Shown: piece after piece, positions 1,203 to 64,000 of the stretch
Numbering within the stretch: the first letter of the stretch is position 1
Layout: each line of letters begins with the position of its first letter
DNA from: Eledone cirrhosa
Taxonomy: Eukaryota
Length of the DNA stretch: 64,000 bases
NCBI GenBank assembly: GCA_964016885.1
Contig: OZ024741.1
Location: 401,512,001 to 401,576,000 of the forward strand
Reading direction: 5' to 3'
The notes under the pieces: model-generated
Database searches by the model: none
Told to the model about the DNA's origin: nothing
What the model saw: only the letters and a program-made list of their open reading frames with translations
Program-made: the position numbers and the translations under genes

Positions 1203-1539
1203 CTTAAATATATTTTTATTTCTTTCTATCTTGTTTATGTTATTCTGTTTGTATTTTAGATAAATGACCAACTTATTAAATTAAACTTTAACCGTATTGA
1301 ATCTATCTATTTGTATGTCATTCTCAATATGTATTAGATATATTGTATTATTATATATATTGTATTATATATATTATATATAACATATATAATATATATA
1401 TATGCTAGCATGGAATATATATATATATGGAATATATATATATGTTAGCATGGAATATATATATATGCTAGCATGGAAGAAAGGACGTAAAATGGTGATG
1501 ATGATGATGATGGAAATGGCCAGTATTCTCATAAACCTA

Positions 1540-3810: not shown

Positions 3811-3974
3811 TACTTGCACAGGAGGAATCTTGAAATGTAGAAATGATAGCTGCAGCTGTCCAGAAGGCCAGTTCCATTGTAGAAATAATGAATGTATTGA
3901 ATCAATAAAGACCTGTGATAAACACGAAGACTGTAAAGATGGCTCAGATGAATCATTAGATATATGTGGTGAAG
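3811..3974 (+). CDS. Exon: end of Cys-rich (VWC/TIL-like) segment + LDL-receptor class A repeat
   Basis: tatattacag| [54 protein letters not shown] |gttagc. Classic C..F.C....CI.....CD...DC.DGSDE. An in-phase alternative donor after 3968 is possible. Confidence 0.9.
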
Positions 3975-6900
3975 GTTAGCACCAGAATATCTTTTTCTTC
4001 TTTTTCTTCTCCCACTTATTCCTGAGAAGGTTGTTGGGGCAAAGTCCTCAAATACTCCTCCAACAGGTCCTGTCAGAAAAAAACATCTCCAACTGACTCT
4101 GCTGTATCCCTAAGTGTGACCAGCCAAACTCATGGATGTTATCCAACCATCTTGCTCTGGATCTATCACTGGGTCTCATGCCAGTTGGTTTTGCCCATAA
4201 AATCTGTTCAGTGATTCTTTCCTGAGACATTCTAACCACATATCCATAGTATCGGAGCTGTGCTCCCTCAATTCAGAGAAGTAATGGCTCTACCTTGAGT
4301 GACTCTCTGATCTTTGAGCTCCAAATCCAGTGATTCTTTCCTGAGACATTTTAACCACATACCCATAATATCGGAGTGGTAGCGGTTTGGATAAGGGCAA
4401 ACGTTAGCTATTTTCTTAATTAATATAATTAAATTAAATTTATACAATTAAATTTTTCTCAAAGTGTATTAATGTTCTCATGTAGTTTTACCTTTATATT
4501 AGTTACAATTGTTTTTGATAGGTGTGCTGCTTAGTGGTTAGAGAATTGGATTCTCAGTCATGTGGTTGTGAGTTTCATTCCCTGACAAAGTGATGCATTG
4601 TGTTCTTGAGCAAGACATTTTATTACATGTTGCTCTTTCTGCCAGGAGCTGCAACTGGTAGATAGAATCAGCAATGGAAAGACCAATGGAAATATTGTTT
4701 CCTTTGTCTGATTTGATGAGTTCTACCTCCCTCGGTTAGTGAGTGAGGTCAGATCTTGAGGAAGTGTTGTTTCTGAGGAAGACAGTGATCAATCTTGAAT
4801 ATCGCTACTAAAAATAGGTGGTGATGTAACTCCTACCAGCCCTCTGAAATTATCGTAAAACAATGAAGTACTCTTAACAACCTACATCTAACTTTTGTTT
4901 TATTTTGATTGTTCAAAATATACATACTTTATAAATATACTTTGTATAAAAATATAAACACATATGATATATACAAAGCATATAAATAAATTTACAGTAG
5001 AATAATATAACAAATATGTTTTAAATATATACATAAATAACATTACAAATGCTTAAATAACATTATAAGTTGATCACGATTCTTTCAGAAAGATATATTC
5101 TTTTAATGTTGCAATATTAAAGAAAATGTAAAGGAAGGGGTGAACACCCGAGCCAACACCAGATCAAAAGAAAAGACAGCAGCATTGCGAGGAGTACTGG
5201 GCAACCTCTCTAATGTATAAATATAATTTAAATGCATTAAAATTGACACTTTACTTCATGTTGCTCAACTCCCCTTAATGTAGAACCAATTATAATTTTG
5301 TGATAGAAATGTGTGTCATCTCTATATCTTTATCAATTTCTTTTCATTCTGTTAACCATTATTCTTTTGTTTCTGTTTAAAATTTTAGAATCGATTTCAG
5401 CAAATGCACCAAATGTTAAGAAACCTAAAGGTTTGTGTAAAATATTTCTGTAAATTTTAAAAAAATAAAAAACGAAGGTAAAAAACTACTTTAAAGTTAG
5501 TAAATTTTTGTTCCTTTTAAAATTGATTATATAAGTATTTCAGTCATCATCATTATTATTATGGTTAGGTTCAAATCCTGCTGAGGTTAGTTTTGCCTTT
5601 CATCTTTACGGGGTCTATAATATAAAGCACCAGTAATGCACAGGGGTCCATTTAATCGACTTTTCCTCACCCAAAATTGTTGGCCTTGTGCCTAAATTAG
5701 AAACCCTTATTATTATTACGTCCTTTTACGTTCTGAGTTCAAATCCTGCCAAGGCTAGCTTTGCCTTTTATCCTTATGTGACTGATAAAACAAAGTACCA
5801 GTAACACGCTGAGGACCATTTAATCAACTTTACCCTTTACTTCAAATTGTTGGCTTTCTGTCAAAATATACAAACAATTACTATTCAATTTATTTTATTC
5901 ATTATTCAAAGTAATTTGATTAAGTAGCTTAATTCAATTTTTTAGAAATATTTAATAATAATAATAATAAAATTATTGTGTACAGTGCTCAGGTGCACTA
6001 CAGCTCATCAAATGTGCATGTATAGTACATAGAATAATATACAAATGTCAGGGAAGTGAATAGTGTATATACATGTGGGTGTGTGTATGGAGGGGGAATA
6101 TTAGGTGTAGTGTTGGCGAAAATCTATGAAAATATGTTTAAAGTGTCAAAAAATATTGTATTGTTTTTCATTTTGTTTACAGAGAACATTAGAACAGAGT
6201 GAGAATTAAAACATTTAAAAATCGCTGTCAAAATCTTTATGAAAATCTATTGATGAATTTTGGACTAAAAATTTTAGTATACTGAATGTACAATACATGT
6301 TTCTAATACTTCATCAGAGGTTTATGGGTCATTGATGATGTCAAAAGTAAAATTTTAGAAATTGTAGTCCTATACGAGCGAGACATGGTCACCCGACCAA
6401 TCTTGCCTCAAGTGGACAATTCCCGCCTAATCCATGCTAGTGTAGAAGATAGACGTTAAGCGATGATGATGATAATGATGATGTAGGTTTGAATAACAGA
6501 AAAAACATTTGCTTTAATTTCAGAGTCCCCTATATGCAAGTTCGTAAATATTATGAAAGATCCCAATATAGTTGCAACAAGTGCAATCCAAGCTTCAAGT
6601 TATAACATTGATAACAATGCTAATGATATTCGTCCTGGTGAACTGTTGTGGTATTCTGCTGATGAAGATAATTTCCCTAACATTATTATTGACATGTCAA
6701 ATATTGTTTCTCCAATGGAAAAGGTTTCTTTATTTCGACCTCACAATATTAAATCATTTGAGATTCTTTTAATGAAAGGAAATAAAGTGTTGAAAACATA
6801 CAAGGTAATTATTATTTATTTAGAATGTACATTTATACATACAGACACATATACACATGCATAGCTGATGATGATGGCTGCAACTCGATTTTGAGTAATG

Positions 6901-9900
6901 CCATCACTTGATACTTAAGCATGAGCATCACTAACATGGCTTTTTAGTCCTGCTAGGGACTTCCCTATGGCCAGCAATACCAAGCATCACAACAAATGTC
7001 ACATATCAAGCGATGCCTGTGGTTGAAGCTTTTTTAAGTGAAGAAAGGCTTTGCACGGGGCCAATCCCACTCTCTGAACAGCAAATCTATTTGGCCAAAA
7101 AGTAGAACTGGTCTACATCATTGGATACAAATGAAATCACAGGGTTTATATCAGCGTGGCCTTCTCCTAGAGAGATGTCTTAATGAAGACTAAGAGTCTC
7201 TCACTCCACAAAAAATCTTTATTGGATGGCCGTTGACTCACTTAAGTTCCTCCGCCCTTTGGCAGGTATTATTTTTCATCCCGTAGGGTGTCCAAAATCA
7301 CACTCCTCACCAAGCAAGTTTAGTCGCCAATGACCCGACCATACACATGTTGTACTGGGTTACATGTTACCAGTAGTACTGAAGAGCAACCTGACATACA
7401 TATATACACACATTCATACATGCATATTTGAAATGCCATAAATATTTTGTTAAATAATTTTTTAAATAACATATTTCTATATTTTATACCAAATAATGGT
7501 TTCTGATTTAGGCTCAATGACAATAATTACCTGAAAAGGATTTGACATATGGTAAATTATTTAACCCTTTATCGTTTAAACTGCCGTATCCGGCCAGAAT
7601 TCTCACCTCTTTCTGTTCAAACCAACTGTAACTGGCCACTCATATTGACATTAAGGTATTGTTCTCAAAATAAATAACATCATCAAAACCTGGTAGATTC
7701 CATATTATGTGAGATAAAGCCTTTACCCTGAAAATATTATAGTAGAGTAATGTAAATGCTAAAGGGTTAAATAACATTTATTTGACTTGATATTTTATAA
7801 CTTTTAGGCTAAATCAAGTGAAGAAGTGAATCTTTATGACAAAAGAGCAACACACATACAGTTGAAATTATTTCCACTTGATATAAAACAGTGCATTGCT
7901 ACAGAAGTCTCGATATTTGCTTGTATCAGTGAAAGTAAGTCGATATTTTATTACATTTAGTTATTGTAATGGAAGTAGTGTGTTGTTTTCTTTTCTGATA
8001 ATTCTTTCATTCTTTTGCTGGATTGGGTAGGTACCTTCTTTTGTATATCTATCTTTCTGTCTGTGTGTATATATATAGCTTTCTGTCTGTCTGTCTGTCT
8101 TATCTGTCTATCTGTCTATCAATTTATTTAACTATTTCTTCATATTTCTATATGTCTGTCTTTCTATCTGTCTGTCTATCTATCTGTCTATCTGTCTGTC
8201 TATCTGTCTGTCTATCTGTCTGTCTATCTGTCTCTGCGAGGAGCCGATTTCGGCCACTGAGATAGAGGACGTGCTGAGCCAATGCGGCAAACGCAAATCC
8301 CCGGGTCTCGATGGTCTTCCATACGAATTATATCTAGCTATGCCGGACTTGTTCCCCGATCTCCTCGAGGCGGTCTACTGCAACTGGCAACAGAACGGGA
8401 GAATTCCCTGTATTGTGACCAAGGGTGTAGTCACGCTAGTGAGGAAGGACGAGAACAAGGGGGACGATATAAATAACTTCAGGCCCATAACTCTGCTAAA
8501 TACAGAGTTACAGATTTTGGCCAAGGTGCTAGCAAAGAGGTTGGCGCTTGTCGTGGGCAACCTGGTAGGAGATGCGCAGACATGTGCTATCCCGTCCAGG
8601 TCCATCCATGACAACCTCCACCTCATGCGATACATCATAGAGAGGGTTGGGAACGAACCCGGCTTTGGTGGGGCTCTGATCAACTTGGATCAATCTACGG
8701 CGTTCGATAGGGTCGACCATGGTTACCTGGATGCGGTGCTAGCGGCGGCAGGTTTCGGACCCGTTTTCAGGGGCTGGATCACTGCTATGCACAGCAGCCG
8801 CATCTGCTCTAGGGTCAAGGTGAACAGCTACCTCTCGGAGCCGTTCAAAATCGCGCGGTCCATCCGACAAGGGTGCCCTCTCTCCTCCCTTCTGTATATG
8901 TTGACTCTCGAGCCACTACTGCGGAAGTTGGAGTTGTTGCAGGGATTGCGGAAAGCGGTGTCGGCCTACGCCGATGACGTGACAGTAATGGTGTCGACGG
9001 CCTCCGAAATCGAGGCGGTCGGCACCTTACTGGAGGAGTACGAAAGGTTCACAGGGGCTAAGCTGAACCAGCACAAGTCGATCGGTTTGCAACTCGGCAC
9101 GTGGAGGGGCAGACCGATGCCCTCCGATGGCGTCGTCGGACGCTGGACAGAGGGCCTGGTGAAGTTGCTCGGGGTCTGGTTCGGACCGGACCTCCAGGTC
9201 GAGAAAAACTGGGCGGAGGTTACGAACAGGGTGTTTGCACTGACCCAGAAGTGGGCCAGTTGCAAACTATCCCTGAAAGGTCGGGCGGAGGTGGCGAACA
9301 CCTACATAGCGTCCGTCATCTACTACCGCCTGACCGTAGTGCCCTGCCCAAGGGAAACCCTCGCCAAGATGGAGCGCGCGCTCCTTTGGAAGAGGCGGGC
9401 TCCTATGGTGAGGAGATCCATCTGCTGTCAACACCCTTCGAAAGGAGGGCTGAGGATGCCGTGGCTAATGATGCGTAAACACGCATTAAGGCTACGGCAC
9501 CTCTACGTATTCCTCACCGGACAACCGGTGTGGGCCTCGTTTGTGAGACGAACCTTTCCCAGACTCGTCTCACTCACCGAGCTGCAATCCTGGGTCAAGC
9601 AAAGACCGAGAAAACTGGGCGCCTGGCACACTGAGTGTGCCCAGGCGCTCACCGCCCTCTGGCAGGCGGATCCGGTTATCAGTGGCGACTCCACCGCAAC
9701 ATTCTATAGAGGGCTGGTACACAGCAGGTGCGACGACGCCCTCGGAGAAGCCCTAGACATGGAGGAGGACGAACTGGCCAGCCTGTTCGGTAGGACATTC
9801 AGCCCGGGACCTATGGACAACTTCCAGAAGTCCCTGGCCTGGCAGTGCTACCGAGGGGCTCTACCCGTTCGAGAAAAGCTCTACAGACACGGGCGCCCGG

Positions 9901-12900
9901 GTAGGGACCCCGCCAAAAAGATCTGTCCCAGATGCGTGAGCGACGAGGAAACCGTTGCACACGCATTGGTACACTGCTCGGGCGTAGCCGATCTGTGGGG
10001 CTATGTCGAACAACTGCTGTCAAGGGTGGGACCGATCCGGTTGCCACCGAGTCTATTGTAATGATCAAGCCGCCTCCCCCCTTCAAAGATGAAGGAGAGG
10101 CGGTGTTTCTGTGCGTAATAGCCATGGCGAAAGAGGTTGTATGGTGGACGCGTCTGAAAAGACTGAGGTCAGGCACCTTTCTCTCTGGCCAACAACTGGT
10201 CCGTTTCGTCCGATATCATTTCGGAAGAAGGATCAGGATGGAGAGAGAGGTGCTCCACCCCAGTCGTTTTTATGAAAGGTGGGTGTACAACAACAATCTA
10301 ATAAAAACACAAGGGCCTAACTTCACCCAGGCAGGGGATTTCCCCCACCTCAAAATGATTAAGGCCCCACAGGACACCTATAAAACTTTAAAAAACAATT
10401 TTAAAGAGGACGTGGGTCCCCCCTGCGTCGGGCCCATTAACCGCGTCCTCCTAAAAAACTACCTCACCCCCTCCCCAAACACCCACACAACTCCAAGCTC
10501 CCCAACCACACAACACACTGATGCCCCCACACTTCCACAAACCACCACCCCACCCAACAACCCATCCCCCACCCTAATGGAAATTGTGCAGCCCGATACC
10601 CGGGACGCAGAGAGGTAAGTGCCTTTTCTCTTCACCACCAACATGGCTATGCTAAGAGTAGGCTGTTTAAATGCGCGTGGCCTGGGCTCAACTTGGAAGC
10701 AAGCAATGTTTCTAAATGACCTCAGGTCACAATGTATAGATGTGATGGTTATTTGCGAGGCCCGGATCAGCAACGTGCGACAGCTGGCCCCCACCTTTGA
10801 TGACTTTGAGATGCACGCATCTCTCTGTCAGCCCGGAGGTGGGGGTGGAGTTGTCGTTCTGCTGCAAAAACATCTGGGTCTCGCAACACAGATGGTACAT
10901 TTGGACCCGGAGGGTCGACTAGTGGTTCTGGACCTTGGCAGTGGTAAAGGCGGAGCGTTTAGGTTGGTAGCCACCTACGGCCCTTTCGGGTCAATGCGGC
11001 CGGACTTCTTCCATCGTCTGGAGACTTTTCTAGAGACGTCCCACTCCTTGCTATTAGTGGGGGACTGGAATGGTATCCTAGATGCACGCTGGGACTACGT
11101 AGGGGCCTGCCCCGATAGAGAGGGGTGTAATAGCCTCAAAGGGTTAATCGGTCAATTTGACCTGGCCGATAGATATCGACTAGATTTTCCGACTGCGCCA
11201 ACCTGGACTTGGGCAAATCGTAGCGGATCATCTAGGTCGTACCTAGATAGGTTCTTAGTTAGAATTAAGGATAAGGACTTTTTAAGTTGTCCAAAAATGC
11301 GCATGGTTGGCTATTCAGACCACAAATTAGTGACCTGCATGGTCAACCTTGACAGAACTCATAGACAGGGCCCCGGTTACTGGAAGCTCAACTTGTCCTT
11401 GCCGGCAAGTAGAGCCTACAGGAATCGGATTAGTACGTTAGTTAAGGAACGGTTGACTGGAGCGATCGTCAACAGCAGGTGGTGGGTATCTCTAAAGAGA
11501 GAGATTAGAGTAGTCTCGATAGAATTTAGTAAGGTTCTAGCTGCGGATAGGAATAGGAAGGAAAGGGAGCTAATAGATAGAGTAGAAGAGGCAATTAGAA
11601 GCGGCGATGTGGCCAGAGTGCTAGCGTCGAGAACGGCTTTGAGCCAGTTTTTCGACGCGAAGCACGAAGGCTGAGTTGTCCGAAGTAAAATACGTGCTCT
11701 AGGGAACGAGGGGACCAAAGCTGTTAGCTGGGCCCGCGTGACAGAGGCCAACAGTGGAACTAAATCCACCATCCGGTCTTTGCGAGACCTGGATGCACGG
11801 GCGATTCTTGAGCCTAAGCAGATGTGTGAGGCCTTTCAAAGGCACTTTGCCCGACTGTTCGGGAGGGGCGGGGAGCCGGTTGGGAACGTGGACTTCGGTC
11901 CATACCTCGACGGCCTGCCGCGCCTCTCAGACAGGGAGGCGAAGTCCTGCGAGGAGCCGATTTCGGCCGCTGAGATAGAGGACGTGCTGAGCCAATGCGG
12001 CAAACGCAAATCCCCGGGTCTCGATGGTCTTCCTTACGAATTATATCTAGCTATGCCGGACTTGTTCCCCGATCTCCTCGAGGCGGTCTACTGCAACTGG
12101 CAACAGAACGGGAGAATTCCCTGTACTGTGACCAAGGGCGTAGTCACGCTAGTGAGGAAGGACGAGAACAAGGGGGACGAAATAAGTAACTTCAGGCCCA
12201 TAACTCTGCTAAATACAGAGTTACAGATTTTGGCCAAGGTGCTAGCAAAGAGGTTGGCGCTTGTCGTGGGCAACCTGGTGGGAGATGCGCAGACATGCGC
12301 TATCCCGTCCAGGTCCATCCATGACAACCTCCACCTCATGCGATACATCATAGAGAGGGTTGGGAACGAACCCGGCTTTGGTGGGGCTCTGATCAACTTG
12401 GATCAATCTAAGGCGTTCGATAGGGTCGACCATGGTTACCTGGATGCGGTGCTAGCGGCGGCAGGCTTCGGACCTGTTTTCAGGGGCTGGATCACTGCTA
12501 TGCACAGCAGCCGCATCTGCTCTAGGGTCAAGGTGAACGGCTACCTCTCGGAGCCGTTCAAAATCGCACGGTCCATCCGACAAGGGTGCCCTCTCTCCTC
12601 CCTTCTGTATGTGTTGACTCTCGAGCCACTACTGCGGAAGTTGAAGTTGTTGCAGGGCATCCCTTTGGAACCGGGATTGCGGAAAGCGGTGTCGGCCTAC
12701 GCCGATGACGTGACAGTAATGGTGTCGACGGCCTCCGAAATCGAGGCGGTCGGCACCTTACTGGAGGAGTACGAAAAGTTCACAGGGGCTAAGCTGAACC
12801 GGGACAAGTCGATCGGTTTGCAACTCGGCACGTGGAGGGGCAGACCGATGCCCTCCGATGGCGTCGTCGGACGCTGGACGGAGGACCCGGTGAAGTTGCT

Positions 12901-15900: not shown

Positions 15901-16301
15901 TGCCAATAGTAGAAAAAATTATATCTAAAAGGGTAAAAGGTAAAGATCCTTTGGTCCTGAATTATCATGGGTGTTGCATCTAGGTTTCCTTCTGAGGTAC
16001 AAGTATGAACCCACCAACAACGTATCTAACATCATGTGTAAGCATTAACGTGACTGGTTAAGACACATCACATGATTACCCAATGAGAAATATGTTAATC
16101 AGGTCCTGCATTGGTACTCCTCCATGGTGGCACAGAGGACATTGCATGATGAAATGACAGTGGCAGACAATCAACAGAGACCTGAAACCTGTTAACAAAA
16201 GTTGGAACAATATAGTGATAGATACAACTGACTGTGGTCATTGGAGCACTTTGGCTGCCTCATGTGTTTCAAGATGCAGGAGCTTCTAAGTCTAATATAT
16301 G

Positions 16302-16373
<72 letters not shown>

Positions 16374-55300: not shown

Positions 55301-58300
55301 GAGAGTAACATGGTGGTGGAACAGTAAGGTGGAGGGGTCAATTAAGGCCAAAAAGCAGGCTTGGAAAGTAGGGCGGGATGGGGGAAGTAGAGAAGACTAT
55401 CAAGTGGCCAGGAGGGAAGCTAGGAGACAGGTGTACTTCGCAAGAAGGGAAGCAGAGGAAATAAAGTTCAAGCAGGTTCTATAATGCGAGGACCAAAAAC
55501 GTGAGGTGTTCAGGATTGCTAGGCAATGTGTCAAGGAAAACCGTGATATTGTCGGGGAGAAGTGTGTACTTAATGATGACGGCGTACTTGCCATCACCGA
55601 CGCTGATAAGAAGGTAGCTTGGAAGTGTCACTACGAAAGGCTACTAAATGAGGAGAATAAATGGGAGAAAGACAGTCTCCCCCACATCGACCCAATAGAG
55701 GGACCAGCAGTGTTAGTCGAGGGTAGTATAATAAGTAAGGCAATCAAAGATATGAAGACGGGTAAGGAGGCTGGGCCTTCGGAAATAGTTGCTGAGATGC
55801 TGAAGGCATCTGGTACGGTGGGACACACCATGGTCACCCGGATAGTTAACCAAGTCGTACAGAATGGGGTTGTTCCGAAGGACTGGCGTAGCAGCATCAT
55901 CGTTAACTGTTATAAGGGTAAAGGAGATGCCCTAGATAGGAGTAACTATAGAGGCATTAAATTAATCGACCAGGTCATGAAGGTCACGGAAAAAGTAATA
56001 GCGCAACTAATCAGAGAGAGAATTGATCTAGATGAAATGCAGTTCGGGTTTGTGTCAGGGAAAAGTACCACAGACGCTCTTTTCATTGTACGACAACTAC
56101 AGGAGAAGTACCTAGCTAAAAGTAAACCCCTATACTTAGCTTTTGTCAACTTGGAGAAAGTATTCGACAGAGTCCCCCGTTCCATTATCTGGTGGGCTCT
56201 TAGAAAACTAGGTGTTGATGAATGGCTTGTGAGAGCTATACAAGCCATGTATAAAGAAACAGTCAGCAAGGTTAGAATTAACAACGAATATAGTGAAGAG
56301 TTTAGCGTAAAAGTTGGTGTTCATCAGGGCTCTGTTCTTAGCCCCCTACTATTTATTATTGCCCTTCAGGCTATAACAGTGGAGTTCAAGACCAGCTGCC
56401 CATGGGAACTCCTATACGCAGATGATCTAACGCTCATAGCTGAATCAATGGCCGAGCTAGAGAAGAAATTCCAAACATGGAAGCACGGCCTAGAATCAAA
56501 AGGCCTTAAAATTAACCTGGCTAAGACTAAAGTTCTAGTTTGTAGGAAAGAAAATAAGGCGCCGGTCCCTTCCGGGAAATGGCCATGCTCAGTGTGTAGG
56601 AAAGGCGTAGGTAGAAACTCCATTTTATGTCCCAAATGCAAAGTATGGGTGCATAAAAGATGTAGTAGGATCATAGTTAAGCTAACTAAGAACATAGATT
56701 TTACATGTGGCCGGTGCTCTGGTGCAATAAGTAGCAGCAAGTGCCCACAAAATACTAGCTCTTTCAATTGCGCAGAGGGTTCTATAGAAATAGTGGACAG
56801 CTTCCATTACCTGGGTGACAAAATCAGCAGTGGGGGAGGGTGCTCTGAAAGTACAGTAGCTTGAGTCAGAACTGGATGGAAAAAGTTCAGAGAGCTTATA
56901 CCACTATTAGCCGCTAAAGGGTTCTCCCTAAAAATGAAAGGCAGGCTGTATGATGCCTGCATACGAACAGCAATGTTGCATGGCAGTGAGACCTGGGCAT
57001 TGTGTGCAGAGGATATACGCAGACTAGAGAGGAACGAAGCTTGCATGCTCAGCATCCACACCGCCCCTTTCAATGTAAAGTTATGTTGGTGCCACAACAT
57101 CCAGGCCGAAACAAATGAGATCGTGTAGGTGTCACGACAAAAAAAACACACAGTCCACGTTGTAATGTGGCCATGTAGGCAACACGGTAAAAACCTCCCA
57201 GCCCCACACTGTAAATGTGGTTGGTGTTAGGAAGGGCATCCAGCTGTAGAAAACCCGCCAGACAGTCCACGCTGTAATGTGGCCGTGTAGGCAACACGGT
57301 AAAAACCTCCCAGCCCCACACTGTAAATGTGGTTGGTGTTAGGAAGGGCATCCAGCTGTAGAAAACCCGCCAGACAGTCCTATGCGAGCAAGACAATCAC
57401 TCTTGCCTCAAGTGGGAAAACCCCCGTCCAAACCCATGCAAGCGTGGAACACGGACGTTAAACGTTGATGATGATGATGATGATGATAATTTCAGATATG
57501 TAAATAATTATATAAATGTTTATTTGAATATAACATCTCATCTTCTTCCTCACAGCAACAACAATGTTACCAACTACCACACTTCTCACATGTATGTAGA
57601 AATAATTATTGCACTCTCTATATATTAATGTCAATATCAATTATTATATATATTTTATATATAAGTGTAAATTAGTATGAAATATATTATGATTAAATAT
57701 ATGTAAAATTATAAACTTTCTCTGATAAAATATATATATAACCTTTATTTTGTTTATATTTCAGCCACAGCTATTCCAACAACAACACAACCAACAACGA
57801 CACTACAACCAATAACGACACAACCAACAACAACGACACAACCAACAACAACGACACAACCAACAACGACACCACAACCAACAACAACACCACAACCAAC
57901 AACAACACCACAACCAACAACGACACTACAACCAACAACAACACCACAGCCAACGACACAACCAACAACAACACCACAACCAACAACAACACCACAACCA
58001 ACAACAACACCACAACCAACAACAACACCACAACCAACAACAACACAACCAACAACGACACCACAAACAACAGCAACACAACCAACAACAAAACAACCAA
58101 CAACAACGACACAACCAACAACGACACCACAACCAACAACAACGACACAACCAACAACGACACAACCAACAACGACACCACAACCAACAACACCACAACC
58201 AACAACAACACCACAACCAACAACGACACAACCAACAACGACAACACAACCAACAACAACACAACCAACAACAACAACACAACCAACAACGACACTACAA

Positions 58301-61300
58301 CCAACAACACAACCAACAACGACAACACAACCAACGACAACACAACCAACAACAAGACCACAACCAACGACACAACCAACAACAACACAACCAACAACAA
58401 CACAACCAACAACAACACAACCAACAACAACACAACCAACAACGACAACACAACCAACAACGACACAGCCAACAACAACACCACAACCAACAACAACGAC
58501 ACAACCAACGACGACAACACAACCAACAACGACACAACCAACAACAACGACACAACCAACAACAACACCACAACCAACAACAACGACACAACCAACAACA
58601 ACACTACAACCAACAACACAAACAGGTAACATATTTCTGATTAATAAAATTATTTAACATGTAGGAAATCATGATAATAATTATGAAAATATTTTTCTAT
58701 TGTGTTTTACTTCGATTATTTTGTAGAATCATGGTGTGTAGCTAATGATGGTTTGGAAGATGTTTCATTAATAAGATCCTGGGATATTAAATTGTCAAGC
58801 AATGAGGAAAATCCAGATGTTATTAGACCTGGAAACAAAGGATGGAGACCTGCTATAGATGATAAGAAACTTACAGTAACTATGTTTGTTGGTGACTCTT
58901 TAAGATATGGTGCATCTATTCATCTCTTACGATTTAAAGGTGTTGAGAAGTTTGATGTTATTCTAACTGGTGAAGAGGTTAAAAGATTTAAGGTAAGTTT
59001 TAATTAATTTAAATTTTTACAAGAATTTTGATATCTTTCAAAATCATTTGATGTTAAGAAATTTTAGTAAGTGACATAACTCTAGATCTAAATATATTTT
59101 GTTTTAAAAGCTTCTTAAAACCTTTTTGATACCAAACCACCTGAAACTGCTCCTGGATCTACTAGAAAAGTATTTATATCAATGTGTTTATATTCATATA
59201 TTCATGTCAAGACATTCTAATATAATTCTGTGTAGAAATCTTTGTTAATTTATGTTTCCAACAACAGATGAATAATGAGAATATTATGTATCTTATTAAA
59301 TCTAAATCACTTTAAACATTTGATAATATTCTAAATTGTTTAATAACATCAGACAATACCTTTTATGAGAAATATGATATTAGCTCTCTTAATCAATAGA
59401 ATAATAATAAATATTGATTTCAATTTATTGGTATACTTTAAACACTAGGCACAATATTTACAATATTTACAGTAATAATTGTTTCTACTTTTGGCACAAG
59501 GCCAGCAATTACCAATACATTACTGGTACTTTATTTTATCGACCCCGTAAGGATGAAAGGCAAAGTTAACCTCGGCGGGATTTGAACTCAGATCATAAAG
59601 GAACGTAACTCTATGCTTCAAAGCATGGTGTCCGACTCTCTACCGATACTGCCAAATGTTTTATCTTACACTATGATATCTTTATTTTTTTATCTTCCCA
59701 GAATAATGCCAAAAATGATATCGTTAGAATTCCATTTGGTACAACATCAGACACAGTTAAAATCCACTTTATTCCGGTTGCACCTAATTGTAAAATGATA
59801 ATTACAGTATCTTTCATAGGATGTTTTGAATCAGGGTGTAAGTATGAAATGATTTTATTGTTAATAATACCCTGGTAATAAATTATATATTCTAATAATT
59901 GTTTCTACTTTTGACACAAGGCCAGCAATTATCCCAGTGTATTACTGGTACTTTATTTTATTGACCCTGTAAGGATGAAAGGCAAAGTTAACATCGGCGG
60001 GATTTGAACTCAGACCATAAAGGGCCGTAACTCTTTGCTACAAAGCATGGTATACGACCCTCTACCGATACTGCCAATCCACCGATGTTTTGTTGTCTGT
60101 AGATTATTACATCCAAAACAATAATAATTATAACAACATTGTCTCTGATTGAAATGAAGCAAGAGTGTAATTGAATACATAATGAGAAAAGTCATCTCTA
60201 GAACAGCCATTAAAACAGCTAAATACTGTCAAAGCTATGATTAGCTTTCTATTTAGGACAGAGACCACAGCTTGAGGTCCTTTATCCCATTATTTTATTT
60301 CCTTTGTTTTCTTTTGTCTTTCTATCTGTGCTGTTTGTTTTATCAGACACACATCATACCAACAGAAAGATTTATATTTCTGTTGCACAATCCAGCGTTT
60401 TAAAATGATACTCTCAATTAAACCGTGCAAAACCATTTTGCTGGTTTGAGAGCTGATGAAGCTGAAGATGTATGTGTAAACTTGTCTTGTACATCACCTT
60501 TCTTTCCTTTTTCCAGTCAATTCTGTACACCAGTGTACTTCTCCTTGTCCTCCTTCACTTTCATTCTTTTCTATATTACATCTACCTGTCACTCACCTTA
60601 TGGATTATCTCTCTATTGACCACTAGCCGCTGGTCTCTGTCCTCTGAGTCATTTTTACCTATCGCTGTCTTTGACAACATCCACTTGTTTAACGGCTGTT
60701 GTAGCAATGGCTTTTGTCATTTTTATATATAATAATTGTTTCTACTTTTGGCACAAGGCCAGCAAATACCCAGTACATTACTGGTACTTTATTTTATCGA
60801 CCCCGTAAGGATGAAAGACAAAGTTAACCTCGGCGGCATATGAACTCAGATCATAATGGGAGGTAACTCTATGCTTCAAAGCATGGCGTCCGACCCTCTA
60901 CCGATACTGCCAATCCACCACCATATATAATAATAATTATGTGTTAGGTAATTCCGAAGTAAAAGCAAAGGAAAAAAGAGTGCTCTATGTATAGAACAGA
61001 GCTATTAAATTAGAAAGTGAACAACACAAAATATAACTACTCCATTACCAAAGGTTTCTGGATCACAGACAATAATAATATAATATACGTCTGGATCAGT
61101 CATGAGACAGAGATATAGATAAAAGATATGAAATGATCTATAACATCTCTGTCTGACGACCGATCCAGATGTATATTATATTATTCTTGTCTGGGATCCA
61201 GAAACCTTTGGTAATGGAGTAGTTATATTTTGTGTTGTTCACTTTCTAATTAAATATAATAATAATTATGTAAATATTTAAGAAGAATTCTAAAAATAAT

Positions 61301-62942
61301 GTTATAATGAAAATTAATTAGAATTTTCTATTGTTATAATATTTTTCTATTAAATACGTAATTTTGTAGCATTTTAGACATTATTGGAATTTAACTCTAT
61401 AATCTATGGTTCTGTTCTTTCAATCTTACTTTACAATTTTTATGATAAAATGTTATCTCCTTCCTCATAGCAACAACACCAGTAGCAACAACAACAATGT
61501 TACCAACTACCACACCTCTTGCAACAAGTATGTATAAACTATCATTATTCAATATATATTAAAGTCAATACAACTTGTATATAAATTATACATGAAGATA
61601 TAGAAAATATATTATGATATAGAAAATACAAATTTTTCTTCTCTGTATGTTAAAATATGGAATTTTATTTTATTTTTATTTCAGCCACAACTATTCCAAC
61701 AACAACACTACAACAGACAACACAAACAGGTAACATATTTCTGATTAATAAAATTATCTGACATGTAAGAAATCATGATAATAATTATGAAAATATTTTT
61801 CCATTGTGTTTTATTTCTAATTATTTTGTAGAATCATGGTGTGTAGCTAATGATGGTTTGGAAGATGTTTCATTAATAAGATCCTGGGATATTAAATTGT
61901 CAAGCAATGAGGAAAATCCAGATGTTATTAGACCTGGAAACAAAGGATGGAGACCTGCTATAGATGATAAGAAACTTACAGTAACTATGTTTGTTGGTGA
62001 CTCTTTAAGATATGGTGCATCTATTCATCTCTTACGATTTAAAGGTGTTGAGAAGTTTGATGTTATTCTAACTGGTGAAGAGGTTAAAAGATTTAAGGTA
62101 AGTTTTAATTAATTTAAATTTTTACAAGAATTTTGATATCTTTCAAAATCATTTGATGTTAAGAAATTTTAGTAAGTGACATAACTCTAGATCTAAATAT
62201 AATTTGTTTTAAAAGCTTCTTAAAACCTTTTTGATACCAAACCACCTGAAACTGCTCCTGGATCTACTAGAAAAGTATTTATATCAATGTGTTTATATTC
62301 ATATATTCATGTCAAGACATTCTAATATAATTCTGTGTAGAAATCTTTGTTAATTTATGTTTCCAACAACAGATGAATAATGAGAATATTATGTATCTTA
62401 TTAAATCTAAATCACTTTAAACATTTGATAATATTCTAAATTGTTTAATAACATCAGACAATACCTTTTATAAGAAATATGATATTAGCTCTCTTAATCA
62501 ATAGAATAATAATAAATATTGATTTCAATTTATTGGTATACTTTAAACACTAGGCACAATATTTACAATATTTACAGTAATAATTGTTTCTACTTTTGGC
62601 ACAAGGCCAGCAATTACCAATACATTACTGGTACTTTATTTTATCGACCCCGTAAGGATGAAAGGCAAAGTTAACCTCGGCGGGATTTGAACTCAGATCA
62701 TAAAGGAACGTAACTCTATGCTTCAAAGCATGGTGTCCGACTCTCTACCGATACTGCCAAATGTTTTATCTTACACTATGATATCTTTATTTTTTTATCT
62801 TCCCAGAATAATGCCAAAAATGATATCGTTAGAATTCCATTTGGTACAACATCAGACACAGTTAAAATCCACTTTATTCCGGTTGCACCTAATTGTAAAA
62901 TGATAATTACAGTATCTTTCATAGGATGTTTTGAATCAGGGT
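3811..62942 (+). CDS. Partial multi-exon gene (42 exons traced, ~2,100 aa in window): mucin/SCO-spondin/hemolectin-like secreted glycoprotein with LDLa + 11 discoidin(F5/8C)-like domains alternating with PTS linkers
   Basis: Every exon is bounded by AG/GT, intron phases are compatible (2,1,1,0,1,1,0,1...), and the joined frame has no stops. The A-B-C-D exon order repeats. Domain family is assigned from motif pattern (N-terminal Cys, SS, GW.P..DD, C-terminal GC), not from an HMM search. Confidence 0.85.
4010..4380 (-). mobile_element. Old LINE (RTE-like) 3' fragment
   Basis: [35 protein letters not shown]; related + strand copy at ~19670-20000. Confidence 0.65.
5389..5430 (+). CDS. Small linker exon ([14 protein letters not shown])
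   Basis: Pyrimidine tract + ttttag| ... aaag|gtttgt, 42 nt, phase 1-1. Alternative in-frame acceptor at 5400/5401. Confidence 0.6.
6524..6804 (+). CDS. Domain 1 exon A (divergent discoidin-like N-half)
   Basis: tttcag| [14 protein letters not shown]...ASSYN...[22 protein letters not shown]...KTYK |gtaatt; homologous to later A exons. Confidence 0.85.
7561..7770. mobile_element. piggyBac-type MITE
   Basis: TTAA|CCCTTTA ... TAAAGGG|TTAA. Family copies at 16901-17200, ~24805-25029 (and in each type-1 unit) and ~49615-49837. Confidence 0.85.
7808..7934 (+). CDS. Domain 1 exon B
   Basis: ttttag| [42 protein letters not shown] |gtaagt; phase 0-1. Confidence 0.8.
8080..8233. repeat. (TCTG/TCTA)n microsatellite
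   Basis: Direct reading; resumes at 14343-14560. Confidence 0.95.
8234..10285 (+). mobile_element. L1/Tx1-like LINE copy 1, truncated at both ends (RT, CCHC finger)
   Basis: [44 protein letters not shown]. Has 18-bp and 9-bp deletions and a frameshift relative to copy 2. Confidence 0.92.
10286..14342 (+). mobile_element. L1/Tx1-like LINE copy 2: probable ORF1 tail, ORF2 (10643-14080, APE-RT-CCHC) with one in-frame TGA at 11672, 3' UTR with AATAAA
   Basis: [33 protein letters not shown]; the 10619 and 11738 ORFs are in the same frame. Confidence 0.93.
14570..14950 (+). mobile_element. 3' fragment of a related Tx1-like subfamily
   Basis: [14 protein letters not shown]...[12 protein letters not shown] + 3' UTR + aataaagaaa. 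Confidence 0.85.
15628..15678 (+). CDS. Thr/Pro linker exon ([17 protein letters not shown])
   Basis: tttatag| 51 nt |gttagt, phase 1-1. Confidence 0.75.
16382..16484. repeat. Near-perfect palindrome (~51-bp arms) between (TA)n tracts
   Basis: ggaaaagaatgactttacttgtag...tttata t tataaa...ctacaagtaaagtcattcttttcc. Confidence 0.9.
16901..17200. mobile_element. piggyBac-type MITE with internal duplication
   Basis: TTAACCCTTTA...TAAAGGGTTAA. Confidence 0.85.
17240..17510 (+). mobile_element. tRNA-derived SINE, second family (CORE/V-like ttcttgagcaagacac motif)
   Basis: tggcctagaggta / gggttcaattcc boxes. Relatives at ~4520-4650, 22552-22700 (+) and ~45400-45750 (-). Confidence 0.7.
17540..17800 (+). 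mobile_element. RTE 3' fragment (same family as 1540-3039)
   Basis: Aligns with 2780-3040. Confidence 0.85.
17967..18235 (+). CDS. Domain 2 exon A (type 1)
   Basis: ctgtag| [12 protein letters not shown]...[17 protein letters not shown]...NKKYM |gtaagt, 269 nt. Confidence 0.9.
20127..20262 (+). CDS. Domain 2 exon B
   Basis: taccag| [13 protein letters not shown]...[18 protein letters not shown] |gtaagt, 136 nt. Confidence 0.9.
21164..22424 (+). mobile_element. 5'-truncated RTE LINE, near-identical to 31591-32811
   Basis: Same 286-aa C-terminus (one aa difference), same 3' UTR and (GAT)n tail. Confidence 0.95.
23001..23030 (+). CDS. Short linker exon D variant ([10 protein letters not shown])
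   Basis: ttttag| 30 nt |gtatga, phase 1-1. Confidence 0.8.
23188..23420 (-). mobile_element. Old LINE C-terminal fragment in D-A intron, copied in every type-1 unit
   Basis: GYAHRHPE...[21 protein letters not shown]; copies at 26326, 32822, 36607, 40392. Confidence 0.7.
23661..23929 (+). CDS. Domain 3 exon A (type 1)
   Basis: Copy of exon A with AG/GT. Confidence 0.9.
24551..24686 (+). CDS. Domain 3 exon B
   Basis: Copy of exon B with AG/GT. Confidence 0.9.
25199..25255 (+). CDS. Unit 3 linker exon C ([19 protein letters not shown])
   Basis: tctcacag| 57 nt |gtatgt. Confidence 0.85.
26124..26168 (+). CDS. Unit 3 linker exon D ([15 protein letters not shown])
   Basis: tttcag| 45 nt |gtatga. 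Confidence 0.85.
26799..27067 (+). CDS. Domain 4 exon A
   Basis: +3138 copy. Confidence 0.9.
27689..27824 (+). CDS. Domain 4 exon B
   Basis: +3138 copy. Confidence 0.9.
28337..28393 (+). CDS. Unit 4 exon C
   Basis: +3138 copy. Confidence 0.85.
29262..29306 (+). CDS. Unit 4 exon D
   Basis: +3138 copy. Confidence 0.85.
29452..32811 (+). mobile_element. RTE-clade LINE, near full length, uninterrupted ORF
   Basis: Absent from sister units, so the empty site is visible; (GAT)n tail. Confidence 0.96.
29502..32510 (+). CDS. RTE ORF: APE endonuclease + reverse transcriptase with inserted Cys/His zinc-finger-like motif (1002 aa)
   Basis: VQETRW, AYAPQ, GDFNGH, QLDFIL, SQHSLV; [22 protein letters not shown]; CSVC...[12 protein letters not shown]...CSSC. 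Confidence 0.93.
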   Translation: MKGRAGEIVEMLERKEVDVCCVQETRWRGGSARVLVGKSQCYKFFWVGNDDGMGGVGILLADKWVDKVISVYRVNARIIKLRLVLNKTITTIISAYAPQSGLPDELKDRFYESLIHTTALTDDKDFLIIAGDFNGHIGKHCDGFNRVHGGHGVGTRNEEGFRLLEFCDANDMSICNTNFKKPDNHLITYRSGEHSSQLDFILIRGRDRWTVVNTKAFPSEECTSQHSLVVSDLTVRTRRALKQRPTWRRKIWKLKVPSTSNRFKDILLNAYDSKEEQIETFNVEENWEFLKNNLLEATDEVCGWSKTSSRRRVTWWWNNKVDEAVKAKRQAWKEWKNGGSRVHYIETKREARRQVYLARREAEDRKFKHVLQREDQKQEVFKIARQCVRDSCDVIGEKCIRNDKGELALTSAEKKDAWKSHYDRLLNEENAWEEETLPHVDPIEGPAVQVSGSVVSKAIRDMKIGKATGPSGIAAEMLKASGSVGHTITTRIVNQVILEGAIPKDWCSSIIVNCYKGKGDALDRGNYRGIKLMDQVMKVTERVIAQLIRDRVNIDEMQFGFVPGKGTTDALFLVRQLQEKYLAKSKPLYLAFVDLEKAFDRVPRAVIWWALRKLGVDEWLVKAVQAMYRGAVSKVRIGNEYSEEFSVQVGVHQGSVLSPLLFIIVLQAITEEFKTGCPWELLYADDLALIAESMVELENKFQTWKQGLERKGLKVNMTKTKVLISRRENRTQIPSGKWPCSVCRKGVGRNSILCPKCKQWVHKRCSGISGSLIKNVGFTCSSCAETASKQPQETSTTNLWEGPVETVDSFCYLGDRISNGGGCSESTITRVRTGWKKFRELLPLLAAKGFSLRMKGRLYDACIRTAMLHGSETWALKVEDLRRLERNEACMLRWMCNSNIRERQSINELRERLSIRGIKCCVQERRLRWYGHVMRMKDDSCIKRCRALEVDGNRGVGRPKMTWDEVIKADLTQLHLSKSMTHDRDFWRHAVIQGTRPPMGTC
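33295..33563 (+). CDS. Domain 5 exon A
   Basis: Copy with one L>V change (actgta). Confidence 0.9.
34123..34765 (+). mobile_element. 5'-truncated RTE (second family), 4-bp AATA duplication
   Basis: [12 protein letters not shown]...GRPRKTW, 3' UTR, (GAT)n; accounts for the 647-bp unit length difference. Confidence 0.9.
34832..34967 (+). CDS. Domain 5 exon B
   Basis: Copy with AG/GT. Confidence 0.9.
35480..35536 (+). CDS. Unit 5 exon C
   Basis: Copy with AG/GT. Confidence 0.85.
36405..36449 (+). CDS. Unit 5 exon D
   Basis: Copy (S>T variant). Confidence 0.85.
37080..37348 (+). CDS. Domain 6 exon A
   Basis: +3785 copy. Confidence 0.9.
37908..38550 (+). mobile_element. Duplicate of the 34123 RTE fragment (copied with unit 6)
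   Basis: Identical junctions. Confidence 0.9.
38617..38752 (+). CDS. Domain 6 exon B
   Basis: +3785 copy. Confidence 0.9.
39265..39321 (+). CDS. Unit 6 exon C
   Basis: +3785 copy. Confidence 0.85.
40190..40234 (+). CDS. Unit 6 exon D
   Basis: +3785 copy. Confidence 0.85.
40865..41133 (+). CDS. Domain 7 exon A
   Basis: Copy with AG/GT. Confidence 0.9.
41174..41640 (+). mobile_element. Tx1-like 3' fragment with 19-bp TSD
   Basis: TSD ctatctttattttctcagc at 41155-41173 and 41641-41659; [12 protein letters not shown]...GPSLFISL*. Confidence 0.92.
42237..42372 (+). CDS. Domain 7 exon B
   Basis: Copy with AG/GT. Confidence 0.9.
42885..42941 (+). CDS. Unit 7 exon C
   Basis: Copy with AG/GT. 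Confidence 0.85.
43810..43854 (+). CDS. Unit 7 exon D
   Basis: tttcag| 45 nt |gtaaca; followed by the short type-2 intron. Confidence 0.85.
43959..44224 (+). CDS. Domain 8 exon A (type 2)
   Basis: ttgtag| [24 protein letters not shown]...[16 protein letters not shown]...VKGFR |gtaagt, 266 nt. Confidence 0.9.
44686..45139. repeat. 75-bp minisatellite x6
   Basis: aaatatttccaccattgtaacacttctgcctgtaaaatatagttgacataaaatgtttatgtataacagataaca. Confidence 0.95.
46117..46252 (+). CDS. Domain 8 exon B (type 2)
   Basis: acctag| [45 protein letters not shown] |gtaagt. Confidence 0.88.
46330..46700 (-). mobile_element. CR1/Jockey-group LINE fragment (EN-RT linker)
   Basis: [20 protein letters not shown]...DVN......I..AC...VP. 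Confidence 0.65.
47180..48165 (+). mobile_element. Internally deleted RTE/BovB-like element (5' UTR + APE stub fused to C-terminus with C2H2 finger)
   Basis: [21 protein letters not shown]...HGV; [23 protein letters not shown]; [21 protein letters not shown]. Confidence 0.8.
48840..48896 (+). CDS. Unit 8 exon C
   Basis: ctcatag| [19 protein letters not shown] |gtatgt. Confidence 0.85.
49059..49103 (+). CDS. Unit 8 exon D
   Basis: tttcag| 45 nt |gtaaca. Confidence 0.85.
49208..49473 (+). CDS. Domain 9 exon A (type 2)
   Basis: ttgtag| 266 nt |gtgagt. Confidence 0.9.
50250..50900 (+). mobile_element. Degenerate RLE-type (CRE-like) non-LTR retrotransposon 3' fragment
   Basis: C.C...LD..G.H..SC, RH..LN, KR.DG, WDVTV.D, K..KY, F.PVAFE..G; related relic at ~48170-48450. 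Confidence 0.75.
51091..53125 (-). mobile_element. CR1-like LINE 3' end containing an internal 61-bp tandem array
   Basis: Minus strand [29 protein letters not shown], 3' UTR and (TTA)n tail; same UTR at 5953-6120. Confidence 0.8.
51275..53080. repeat. 61-bp minisatellite (~29 copies, some 69-bp variants)
   Basis: ggttttaaaggatgcagtgtctcgacagctaacaactgatgcaggtagtttgttccatgga. Confidence 0.97.
53514..53649 (+). CDS. Domain 9 exon B
   Basis: cccag| [13 protein letters not shown]...[18 protein letters not shown] |gtaagt. Confidence 0.88.
53905..54200 (+). mobile_element. RTE 3' UTR fragment (family of 29452-32811)
   Basis: Aligns to 32505-32790; another fragment at ~22720-22890. Confidence 0.85.
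54260..57487 (+). mobile_element. Degenerate near full-length RTE LINE (second family): stops, two internal deletions, duplicated 3' UTR segment
   Basis: APE and RT motifs; stops at 55482 and 56862; ORF end joined to UTR at ~57050; 3' UTR matches the 34123 copy. Confidence 0.92.
57556..57591 (+). CDS. Unit 9 exon C (shortened, 36 nt)
   Basis: ctcacag| [12 protein letters not shown] |gtatgt. Confidence 0.8.
57765..58625 (+). CDS. Unit 9 exon D expanded into 287-codon PTS mucin domain ((T)2-4[P]QP repeats)
   Basis: Same acceptor and donor context as the 45-nt D exons; 861 nt is a multiple of 3; ACA/CCA/CAA codons. Confidence 0.88.
58727..58992 (+). CDS. Domain 10 exon A (type 2)
   Basis: ttgtag| 266 nt |gtaagt. 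Confidence 0.9.
59478..59657 (-). mobile_element. Deu/Nin-like SINE (minus); more at 59897-60083, 60733-60921 and duplicates at 62583-62760, 63004-63188, 63840-64000
   Basis: Reverse complement of the 3610-3800 SINE. Confidence 0.8.
59702..59837 (+). CDS. Domain 10 exon B
   Basis: tcccag| 136 nt |gtaagt. Confidence 0.88.
60180..60722. mobile_element. Degenerate TIR element (~60-bp imperfect inverted ends); duplicate at 63285-63827
   Basis: aatgagaaaagtcatctctagaacagccattaaa...tgtcaaag vs ctttgacaa...tttaacggctgttgtagcaatggcttttgtcatt. Confidence 0.55.
61008..61251. repeat. Foldback element with ~110-bp inverted arms
   Basis: aattagaaagtgaacaacacaaaatataactactccattaccaaaggtttctggatc ... gatccagaaacctttggtaatggagtagttatattttgtgttgttcactttctaatt. 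Confidence 0.9.
61471..61527 (+). CDS. Unit 10 exon C
   Basis: ctcatag| 57 nt |gtatgt. Confidence 0.85.
61685..61729 (+). CDS. Unit 10 exon D
   Basis: tttcag| 45 nt |gtaaca. Confidence 0.85.
61832..62097 (+). CDS. Domain 11 exon A
   Basis: +3105 copy of domain 10 exon A. Confidence 0.9.
62807..62942 (+). CDS. Domain 11 exon B
   Basis: +3105 copy of domain 10 exon B. Confidence 0.88.
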
Positions 62943-64000
62943 GTAAGTATGAAATGATTTTATTGTTAATAATACCCTGGTAATAAATTATATATTCTAA
63001 TACTTGTTTCTACTTTTGACACAAGGCCAGCAATTATCCCAGTGTATTACTGGTACTTTATTTTATTGACCCTGTAAGGATGAAAGGCAAAGTTAACATC
63101 GGCGGGATTTGAGCTCAGACCATAAAGGGCCGTAACTCTTTGCTACAAAGCATGGTATACGACCCTCTACCGATACTGCCAATCCACCGATGTTTTGTTG
63201 TCTGTAGATTATTACATCCAAAACAATAATAATTATAACAACATTGTCTCTGATTGAAATGAAGCAAGAGTGTAATTGAATACATAATGAGAAAAGTCAT
63301 CTCTATAACAGCCATTAAAACAGCTAAATACTGTCAAAGCTATGATTAGCTTTCTATTTAGGACAGAGACCACAGCTTGAGGTCCTTTATCCCATTATTT
63401 TATTTCCTTTGTTTTCTTTTGTCTTTCTATCTGTGCTGTTTGTTTTATCAGACACACATCATACCAACAGAAAGATTTATATTTCTGTTGCACAATCCAG
63501 CGTTTTAAAATGATACTCTCAATTAAACCGTGCAAAACCATTTTGCTGGTTTGAGAGCTGATGAAGCTGAAGATGTATGTGTAAACTTGTCTTGTACATC
63601 ACCTTTCTTTCCTTTTTCCAGTCAATTCTGTACACCAGTGTACTTCTCCTTGTCCTCCTTCACTTTCATTCTTTTCTATATTACATCTACCTGTCACTCA
63701 CCTTATGGATTATCTCTCTATTGACCACTAGCCGCTGGTCTCTGTCCTCTGAGTCATTTTTACCTATCGCTGTCTTTGACAACATCCACTTGTTTAACGG
63801 CTGTTGTAGCAATGGCTTTTGTCATTTTTATATATAATAATTGTTTCTACTTTTGGCACAAGGCCAGCAAATACCCAGTACATTACTGGTACTTTATTTT
63901 ATCGACCCCGTAAGGATGAAAGACAAAGTTAACCTCGGCGGCATATGAACTCAGATCATAATGGGAGGTAACTCTATGCTTCAAAGCATGGCGTCCGACC

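Follow-up and report, generated by a model that had tools for sequence, protein, structure and literature searches.

Close known relatives of the locus analysed here include lophotrochozoan mucin-like proteins, of which the F5_F8 domain is characteristic (Lang et al. 2016, PMC4948705; here and below, papers are cited from excerpts). Like the octopus gene described here, these proteins carry three VWD-C8-TIL assemblies, LDLa and F5/8C-type domains set in Thr/Pro sequence. SCO-spondin-like and mucin-19-like proteins occur in the skin mucus of O. vulgaris (PMC11431876, PMC10138644), and limpet pedal mucus holds SCO-spondin-like pieces (PMC7333891). The layout nearest to that of the octopus gene is found in the flatworm protein Mlig-ap2, where VWD/TIL and LDLa domains are followed by 46 central repeats and then by TSP1/TIL modules; knock-down of Mlig-ap2 abolishes attachment (PMC6410801). 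The ap2 repeats are left unnamed in the excerpts of PMC8621496, PMC6745481 and PMC9229212, a group of papers that calls them of unknown function but likely central to sticking and in one of which no ap2 homologue in NCBI is reported. The excerpted table of PMC7037938 gives no discoidin domain for ap2, and a general sentence in the excerpt of PMC10057474 names ap1, ap2 and recurring adhesive domains including FA58C, without assigning FA58C to the repeats.

The window, a 64,000-nt stretch of the Eledone cirrhosa contig OZ024741.1 (positions 401,512,001-401,576,000; C2 in Table 1), contains the middle exons of a single, very large octopus gene. A first-pass annotation of the window had spliced 42 exons in frame into about 2,100 aa, and our independent rebuild from 3811 to 62942 arrived at the same gene model: all 42 exons have an AG acceptor and a GT donor, and the spliced 6,344 nt encode 2,114 aa with no stop in the chosen frame versus 107 and 209 stops in the other two. 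A and B exons were located by TBLASTN with exon peptides (11 A and 11 B, plus strand) and the Thr/Pro exons by a composition scan. The module proposed earlier (A 266-281 nt, B 127-136 nt) was recovered, with A exons of 281, 269 or 266 nt, B exons of 127 or 136 nt, and Thr/Pro exons of 30-57 nt except one of 861 nt. With phases of 1-0 for A, 0-1 for B and 1-1 for both C and D, the module is phase-symmetric, which allows duplication in frame. What had been described as a Cys-rich stub is really the final part of the module located after TIL3 of a D3 assembly.

Table 1. Features of the window (window positions), VWD exons upstream of it (window-equivalent positions) and further arrays in the same genome (contig positions)
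Feature	Position	Strand	Remarks
End of Cys-rich module after TIL3 of D3 assembly, and single LDLa	3811..3974	+	Pfam PF00057 for LDLa, E 1e-8
42-nt linker exon	5389..5430	+	Deduced solely from splice sites and frame
Unit 1 (divergent domain)	6524..15678	+	A 6524-6804, B 7808-7934, Thr/Pro 15628-15678
Unit 2	17967..23030	+	A 17967-18235, B 20127-20262, Thr/Pro 23001-23030
Unit 3	23661..26168	+	A 23661-23929, B 24551-24686, C 25199-25255, D 26124-26168
Unit 4	26799..29306	+	A 26799-27067, B 27689-27824, C 28337-28393, D 29262-29306
Unit 5	33295..36449	+	A 33295-33563, B 34832-34967, C 35480-35536, D 36405-36449
Unit 6	37080..40234	+	A 37080-37348, B 38617-38752, C 39265-39321, D 40190-40234
Unit 7	40865..43854	+	A 40865-41133, B 42237-42372, C 42885-42941, D 43810-43854
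Unit 8 (second subtype, four Cys)	43959..49103	+	A 43959-44224, B 46117-46252, C 48840-48896, D 49059-49103
Unit 9	49208..58625	+	A 49208-49473, B 53514-53649, C 57556-57591, D 57765-58625 (287-aa Thr/Gln/Pro mucin exon)
Unit 10	58727..61729	+	A 58727-58992, B 59702-59837, C 61471-61527, D 61685-61729
Unit 11	61832..62942	+	A 61832-62097, B 62807-62942
Intron; gene continues beyond window	62943..64000	+	
VWD1 exons	-216565/-152428		With C8 and TIL exons
VWD2 exons	-126160/-32874/-31252		With C8 and TIL exons
VWD3 exons	-14325/-12241		With C8 and TIL exons
Paralog with 56 A exons, loci L061-L074	C10:30,788,497-30,911,586	-	~2 kb period
Array of 33 copies, loci L108-L112	C2:395,775,879-395,818,680	+	1,329-bp unit, copies 98-100% identical
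22 discoidin-like exons, loci L132-L138	C5:67,486,420-67,547,379	-	Downstream of D3 assembly; alternating pairs, 5,777-bp period
Three weak domain matches	C26:13,545,574-13,606,339	-	Downstream of VWD exon

Random AG-started stretches are open by chance in 11% of cases at 269 nt, 17% at 136 nt and 14% at 164 nt, and the chance that LDLa and four independent A+B types would all be open is roughly 1e-8, a figure that is only rough because the exons were picked after inspection. The array exons are under purifying selection, with dN/dS of 0.26-0.79 and below 1 in 17 of 17 unit pairs (with dS close to saturation for the most distant ones), and alignment across subtypes is mostly limited to the exons (755 of 3,437 nt for unit 3 against unit 10). 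Domains 2-7 are 98-100% and domains 9-11 96-100% identical, with about 60% between both groups and 20-28% between domain 1 and the remaining window domains. The A+B junction and the linkers are shared with a separately annotated Octopus bimaculoides protein, A0A0L8GSU4 (P0001), which is also the best database match (61-87% over most A exons). No RNA run was listed as containing the stretch; three sequencing runs (X1-X3, one sample) read through the introns with no GT-AG junction, as DNA would.

The gene extends far to both sides of the window. Upstream, three VWD-C8-TIL assemblies were found in the order D1-D2-D'-D3, with exons that reach at least to window-equivalent -216,565 (VWD1); VWD2 is split by a 93-kb intron (-126,062 to -32,907). 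An EGF-like exon at window-equivalent -228,391 likely belongs to the gene, because homologs begin that way. The homologs P0003 and P0048 start with hydrophobic leaders; a first exon or signal-peptide exon was not found among the upstream exons located to window-equivalent -228,391. Downstream of the array follow a Cys module with a W.E.DG motif, four TSP1, two TIL, VWC-like modules and a cystine-knot-like exon, and the C-terminal exons are 59-89% identical to P0001. The last exon found (window-equivalent ~366,400-366,690) has 11 Cys in what is by eye a CTCK pattern, Pfam being silent on CTCK in P0001. Another intron, of about 65 kb, lies in this C-terminal region. The VWD/C8/TIL exons that the first-pass annotation had anticipated in the flanks are thus present, as is a by-eye candidate for the cystine-knot exon, and its expectation that annotation would fragment the gene was borne out as well: P0001 begins inside the array and has six domains, and the N-terminal piece is a separate record, P0002.

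In the 664 kb of sequence examined, 47 A and 46 B exons make up the array; every one of them is open, and they extend to window-equivalent 255,072. The count of at least 11 discoidin-like domains proposed from the window thus rises to at least 47. Two weak B-like matches (window-equivalent 80448 and 82667) were dropped from the count as non-exons, and one A donor was placed by hand to match the 251-nt form of neighbouring A exons. From LDLa to B47, 173 exons encode 7,830 aa in two open halves of 2,405 and 5,424 aa. Linkers account for 1,503 of these residues and have a median length of 34 aa, with 50% Thr and 16% Pro. The gene covers no less than 595 kb, and the protein is about 9,700-9,900 aa long, the array being measured and the ends estimated from homologs. 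The layout of the protein is therefore three VWD-C8-TIL assemblies, one LDLa, at least 47 beads on Thr/Pro linkers, TSP1/TIL/VWC modules and a cystine-knot-like end; the whole outline of an invertebrate mucin that is left in pieces by annotation thereby becomes visible.

Neighbouring units are 98.5-99.9% identical, introns included, and lie in subtype blocks; unequal crossing-over of the phase-1 module together with its introns is the likely way in which the array expands. A 61-bp satellite array recurs after A13 in 44 copies and ends at an assembly gap of 200 N inside the array. B13 is absent and, because the gap ends the same 61-bp satellite that precedes B9, probably lies within it; the gap could hide further units. 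The exact copy number thus comes from a single assembly that has a gap and units almost indistinguishable from one another, and a real gene whose copy number was inflated or distorted in assembly would account for the gap, the missing B13, the identical protein of domains 3, 4, 6 and 7, units up to 99.9% alike including introns, and the mere six domains of the O. bimaculoides record. We nevertheless regard such an artefact as highly improbable: the 46 complete domains sort into 37 different protein and 38 different DNA sequences, the units have their own insertions, a gap can hide units but not add them, and short-read annotations collapse such arrays (PMC8621496, PMC6745481, PMC9229212).

The first-pass annotation had also expected the domain to escape standard profiles, and it does. 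None of seven A/B exon translations matches any Pfam family, F5/8C is absent from the 14 Pfam families of P0001 at E<=1, and a genome search with PF00754 gave two matches, none of them within the arrays. With a first, small profile (A1) no PDB match was significant, the top one having E 0.46 and a CBM32 chain E 1.1. A family profile (A2) had 39 PDB matches, 38 of which were F5/8C, DDR or CBM32-type chains (best E 4.3e-4), and a control profile (A3), none of whose 49 members pass the Pfam F5/8C cut-off, retrieved F5/8C-family chains in 27 of 29 matches (best E 5.8e-4); both profiles find the neuropilin b domains (F5/8C). ESM Atlas matches of 0.85-0.90 were mostly to F5/8C families, which we treat as a lead only. 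We used a domain of P0001 as a stand-in for structure prediction (61-65% identical to the main A exons of the window), obtained an AlphaFold model with a pLDDT of 95.3, and ranked structural matches to it with VIA-align. The best was a CBM32 domain (Z 12.8, rmsd 2.5, 113 aligned), and neuropilins, DDR1/2, discoidin I and the C domains of factor V/VIII scored Z 11.7-12.6.

The bead is accordingly predicted from profiles and model to be a discoidin/CBM32-type, galactose-binding-domain-like beta-sandwich, in keeping with the discoidin-like fold proposed earlier, which provides a predicted fold for a Pfam-missed domain that fills most of the protein. Because the non-lectin domains DOC and IFT25 tie at Z 12.1-12.2, sugar binding does not follow from the fold, and the only four columns conserved at 90% in the domain family (C4, I21, R34, W40) include none that points to a sugar site. 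At about 133 aa the bead is below the canonical F5/8C length of 150-160 aa. Its charge is near neutral (K+R 15-21, D+E 12-18), and every domain listed has a Cys at both ends. Three Cys are present in 23 of 46 beads and four in the other 23. In one subtype (window 43959-44224, units 14-35) the fourth Cys is near residue 71 and could pair with an otherwise odd Cys near residue 118; other subtypes have three.

We searched 1.84 billion proteins with the profile and obtained 100 matches at E<=0.001. The bead-type domain with Thr/Pro spacers is present in 4-13 copies in proteins of a nemertean (Lineus mucin-2-like XP_064639835.1, 13 domains with three VWD and seven LDLa), a chiton (Liolophura mucin-2-like XP_064614628.1, seven), a flatworm (Macrostomum VWD proteins, six to eight) and a hemichordate (Glandiceps, four, all of which pass Pfam F5_F8_type_C). 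A weak profile match with InlB B-repeats (P0115) was treated as a false positive. With relatives present in four other animal groups, the architecture cannot be called lineage-specific, although it had been supposed to be so; only the recent amplification is. Compared with its lophotrochozoan relatives, the octopus gene has 47 rather than 4-13 copies, its bead is below Pfam detection, the D3 Cys is lost and P0001 has no CysD by Pfam.

Vertebrate gel-forming mucins offer a further comparison. MUC2, MUC5AC, MUC5B and VWF have the same D1-D2-D'-D3 head and a VWC and cystine-knot end (the knot being matched here by Cys pattern), and Thr/Pro spacers in these mucins are likewise broken by small folded domains; the octopus gene differs in having discoidin-like domains instead of CysD, short spacers and neither D4 nor equivalents of Cys1088 and Cys1130. 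MUC2 heads join via these two cysteines, and the double Cys mutant is monomeric but still forms filaments at low pH (PMC7599080). In the octopus D3 assembly the motif GDCEC[FLV]C is replaced by GGGECLC, so that Asp1087-Cys1088 becomes Gly-Gly (position assigned by motif, not by structure), whereas Asp-Cys is kept in 14 of 14 homolog matches and in the paralogs on contigs C10 and C5; the Cys1130 equivalent is absent here, as in other invertebrate rows. Because both equivalents are missing, a covalent head-to-head polymer is not expected. Chains would instead pair tail-to-tail through the cystine knot and heads would pack non-covalently, so that cross-linking would fall to the beads. O-glycosylated linkers would keep the beads apart, and the beads might then provide numerous weak attachment points for other chains, glycans or surfaces. 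CysD domains have this role in vertebrate mucins. The unpaired third Cys in half of the beads could give covalent cross-links instead.

Our preferred and, on balance, probable reading of the gene product is a secreted mucin that builds a gel and carries multivalent discoidin-like beads, and Lang et al. 2016, in reporting F5_F8 in lophotrochozoan mucin-like proteins, mark the architecture as of a known kind. This reading draws on the spliced frame, the D1-D2-D'-D3 head, the C-terminal match to P0001, the profile and model evidence for the bead, the proteins of O. vulgaris skin mucus and the near-identity of neighbouring units. The linker share of the array residues counts against it, as it is low for a mucin, and so do the missing head-to-head cysteines, the absence of a signal-peptide exon among those located and a cystine knot recognised by its Cys pattern. 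One skin-mucus peptide matches the TSP1 of the C10 paralog at 10 of 12 residues (PMC10138644, excerpted supplement), while ten short motifs of the gene or its ortholog and the ortholog accession were not among the rows listed in the excerpted skin-mucus table of the same study.

The domain content is also that of SCO-spondin, which has the same domain kinds in similar order: both share three VWD, LDLa, FA5/8C, TSP1, TIL, VWC and, by Cys pattern, CTCK (PMC8487547), invertebrate mucins group nearest the SCO-spondins (PMC4948705), and one paralog, P0005, is annotated as SCO-spondin. The octopus gene could accordingly encode a fibre protein like SCO-spondin, belonging to the nervous system or to some other internal matrix, but the numbers of domains diverge so widely between octopus and SCO-spondin (LDLa 1 vs 13, TSP1 4 vs 27, F5/8C-like 47 vs 1; PMC8487547) that we consider this exceedingly improbable. 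A clotting or immune lectin of the blood similar to haemolectin, with discoidin domains that bind microbes or cells, appears quite improbable too. Haemolectin has two more VWD after F5_F8, whereas both the genome search and P0001 show none between array and cystine knot; the octopus gene differs from the Drosophila protein in this missing second VWD pair and in its far more numerous discoidin-like domains and spacers. Moreover, copies that are nearly identical confer avidity rather than diverse specificities.

The gel-building reading has its most substantial competitor in a dedicated adhesive, an octopus counterpart of ap2 (for example egg-string cement or sucker secretion) whose beads would bind surfaces. 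Mlig-ap2 and the octopus gene have in common N-terminal VWD/TIL/C8, LDLa, a repeat core and C-terminal TSP1/TIL, and in both the core consists of near-identical repeats in subtype blocks with Thr-rich spacers. By eye, each ap2 repeat in the sequence excerpts consists of a Thr-rich spacer and a Cys-to-Cys block of about 140-150 aa with the L.P.G..G and V.V.AC/VC-type motifs of the bead family, and the first block after LDLa resembles a canonical F5/8C domain at both its start and its end. The ap2 tail, again by eye, runs module-TSP1-TSP1-TIL-E-TSP1-E-TSP1 as in the octopus gene and has a cystine-knot-like end; the W.E.DG module before the TSP1 pair aligns ungapped with 16 of 54 residues identical (hand count). 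From this by-eye evidence we are fairly confident that the ap2 repeats represent the same discoidin-like bead. The ap2 record was not identified among the 100 and 10 database matches, 10 of which were named.

In favour of an adhesive are the match in layout to ap2 with its knock-down phenotype (PMC6410801), the shared repeat motifs and module, the tandem discoidin domains of the echinoderm adhesives Nectin and Sfp1 (PMC10057474, PMC7037938) and the egg cement made by octopus oviducal glands (PMC8976471). Sea urchin Nectin and sea star Sfp1, as excerpted, resemble the octopus gene in their tandem discoidin domains and differ in having four to six canonical domains in another architecture, Nectin without mucin spacers. 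The ap2 repeats are 221-255 aa long and Lys/Arg-rich, with longer basic spacers, versus about 168 aa and near-neutral beads in octopus, and TSP1/TIL modules are more numerous in ap2. RNAi demonstrates that ap2 is an adhesive; for the octopus gene such a role is a proposal. The ap2 comparison, made by eye and without a program score, would establish family membership and not function. Because the family is broad, with mucus members included, and Macrostomum has further paralogs with these domains (P0048), homology does not imply a role as glue, and we consider the adhesive unlikely.

We are equally doubtful of a more comprehensive proposal, in which the ap2 repeats would be degenerate discoidin domains, ap2 a specialised member of the spiralian mucins and the octopus gene a cephalopod ap2-type adhesive, with independent 20-56x amplification of the bead acting as a tunable dial of stickiness. 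If the ap2 repeats are the same bead, mucus and temporary glue fall into one protein family, and a soluble domain of 135-150 aa could be tested for binding to glycans, to itself and to surfaces.

The genome contains further arrays of the bead (Table 1). The C10 paralog has the same D1-D3 head and TSP1/cystine-knot tail, its array is followed by a 1,483-codon Thr/Pro/Lys/Ile frame, and 47 of 55 pattern-recovered copies are identical in protein. About 125 kb beyond it, the D domains of a second paralog begin. The repeated unit on C2 consists of an A exon and one exon that joins B and a Thr-rich spacer; no D-domain exon, and one TSP1 exon only, was found in the 200 kb around it. Further VWD genes lie on C2 at 396.7, 399.9 and 167.4 Mb, and also on C4. 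Because identity between the arrays is only about 27-51%, each appears to have been amplified on its own. That a single genome has four such arrays, with 22-56 copies each, suggests that selection acted on valency more than once. No description of the octopus array was found in the literature covered, most subscription journals being outside that coverage; new are the copy number of 47, the separate arrays of 56, 33 and 22, the lost head-to-head cysteines and the by-eye colinearity with Mlig-ap2.

A transposon origin of the repeat was rejected, as LINEs are confined to introns and the conserved parts are spliced exons. One LINE (8079-14077, plus strand) occupies the B1-C1 intron with endonuclease and reverse-transcriptase frames of 351 and 801 aa, and its 3' 2 kb are duplicated (96.8%). 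RTE-like LINE copies are located in introns at ~29460-32810, 21198-22421, 54324-57400 and 1393-3015; the stretches 21198-22421 and 31591-32813 are 99.7% identical, indicating a very recent insertion or duplication. Intronic satellites have periods of 61 bp (51270-53082, 29 copies), 75 bp (44686-45140, 6 copies) and 81 bp (1-1201, 15 copies). About 310 nt upstream of B9, an orphan B-exon acceptor with the first codons (~53205-53226) is probably the remnant of a partial duplication.
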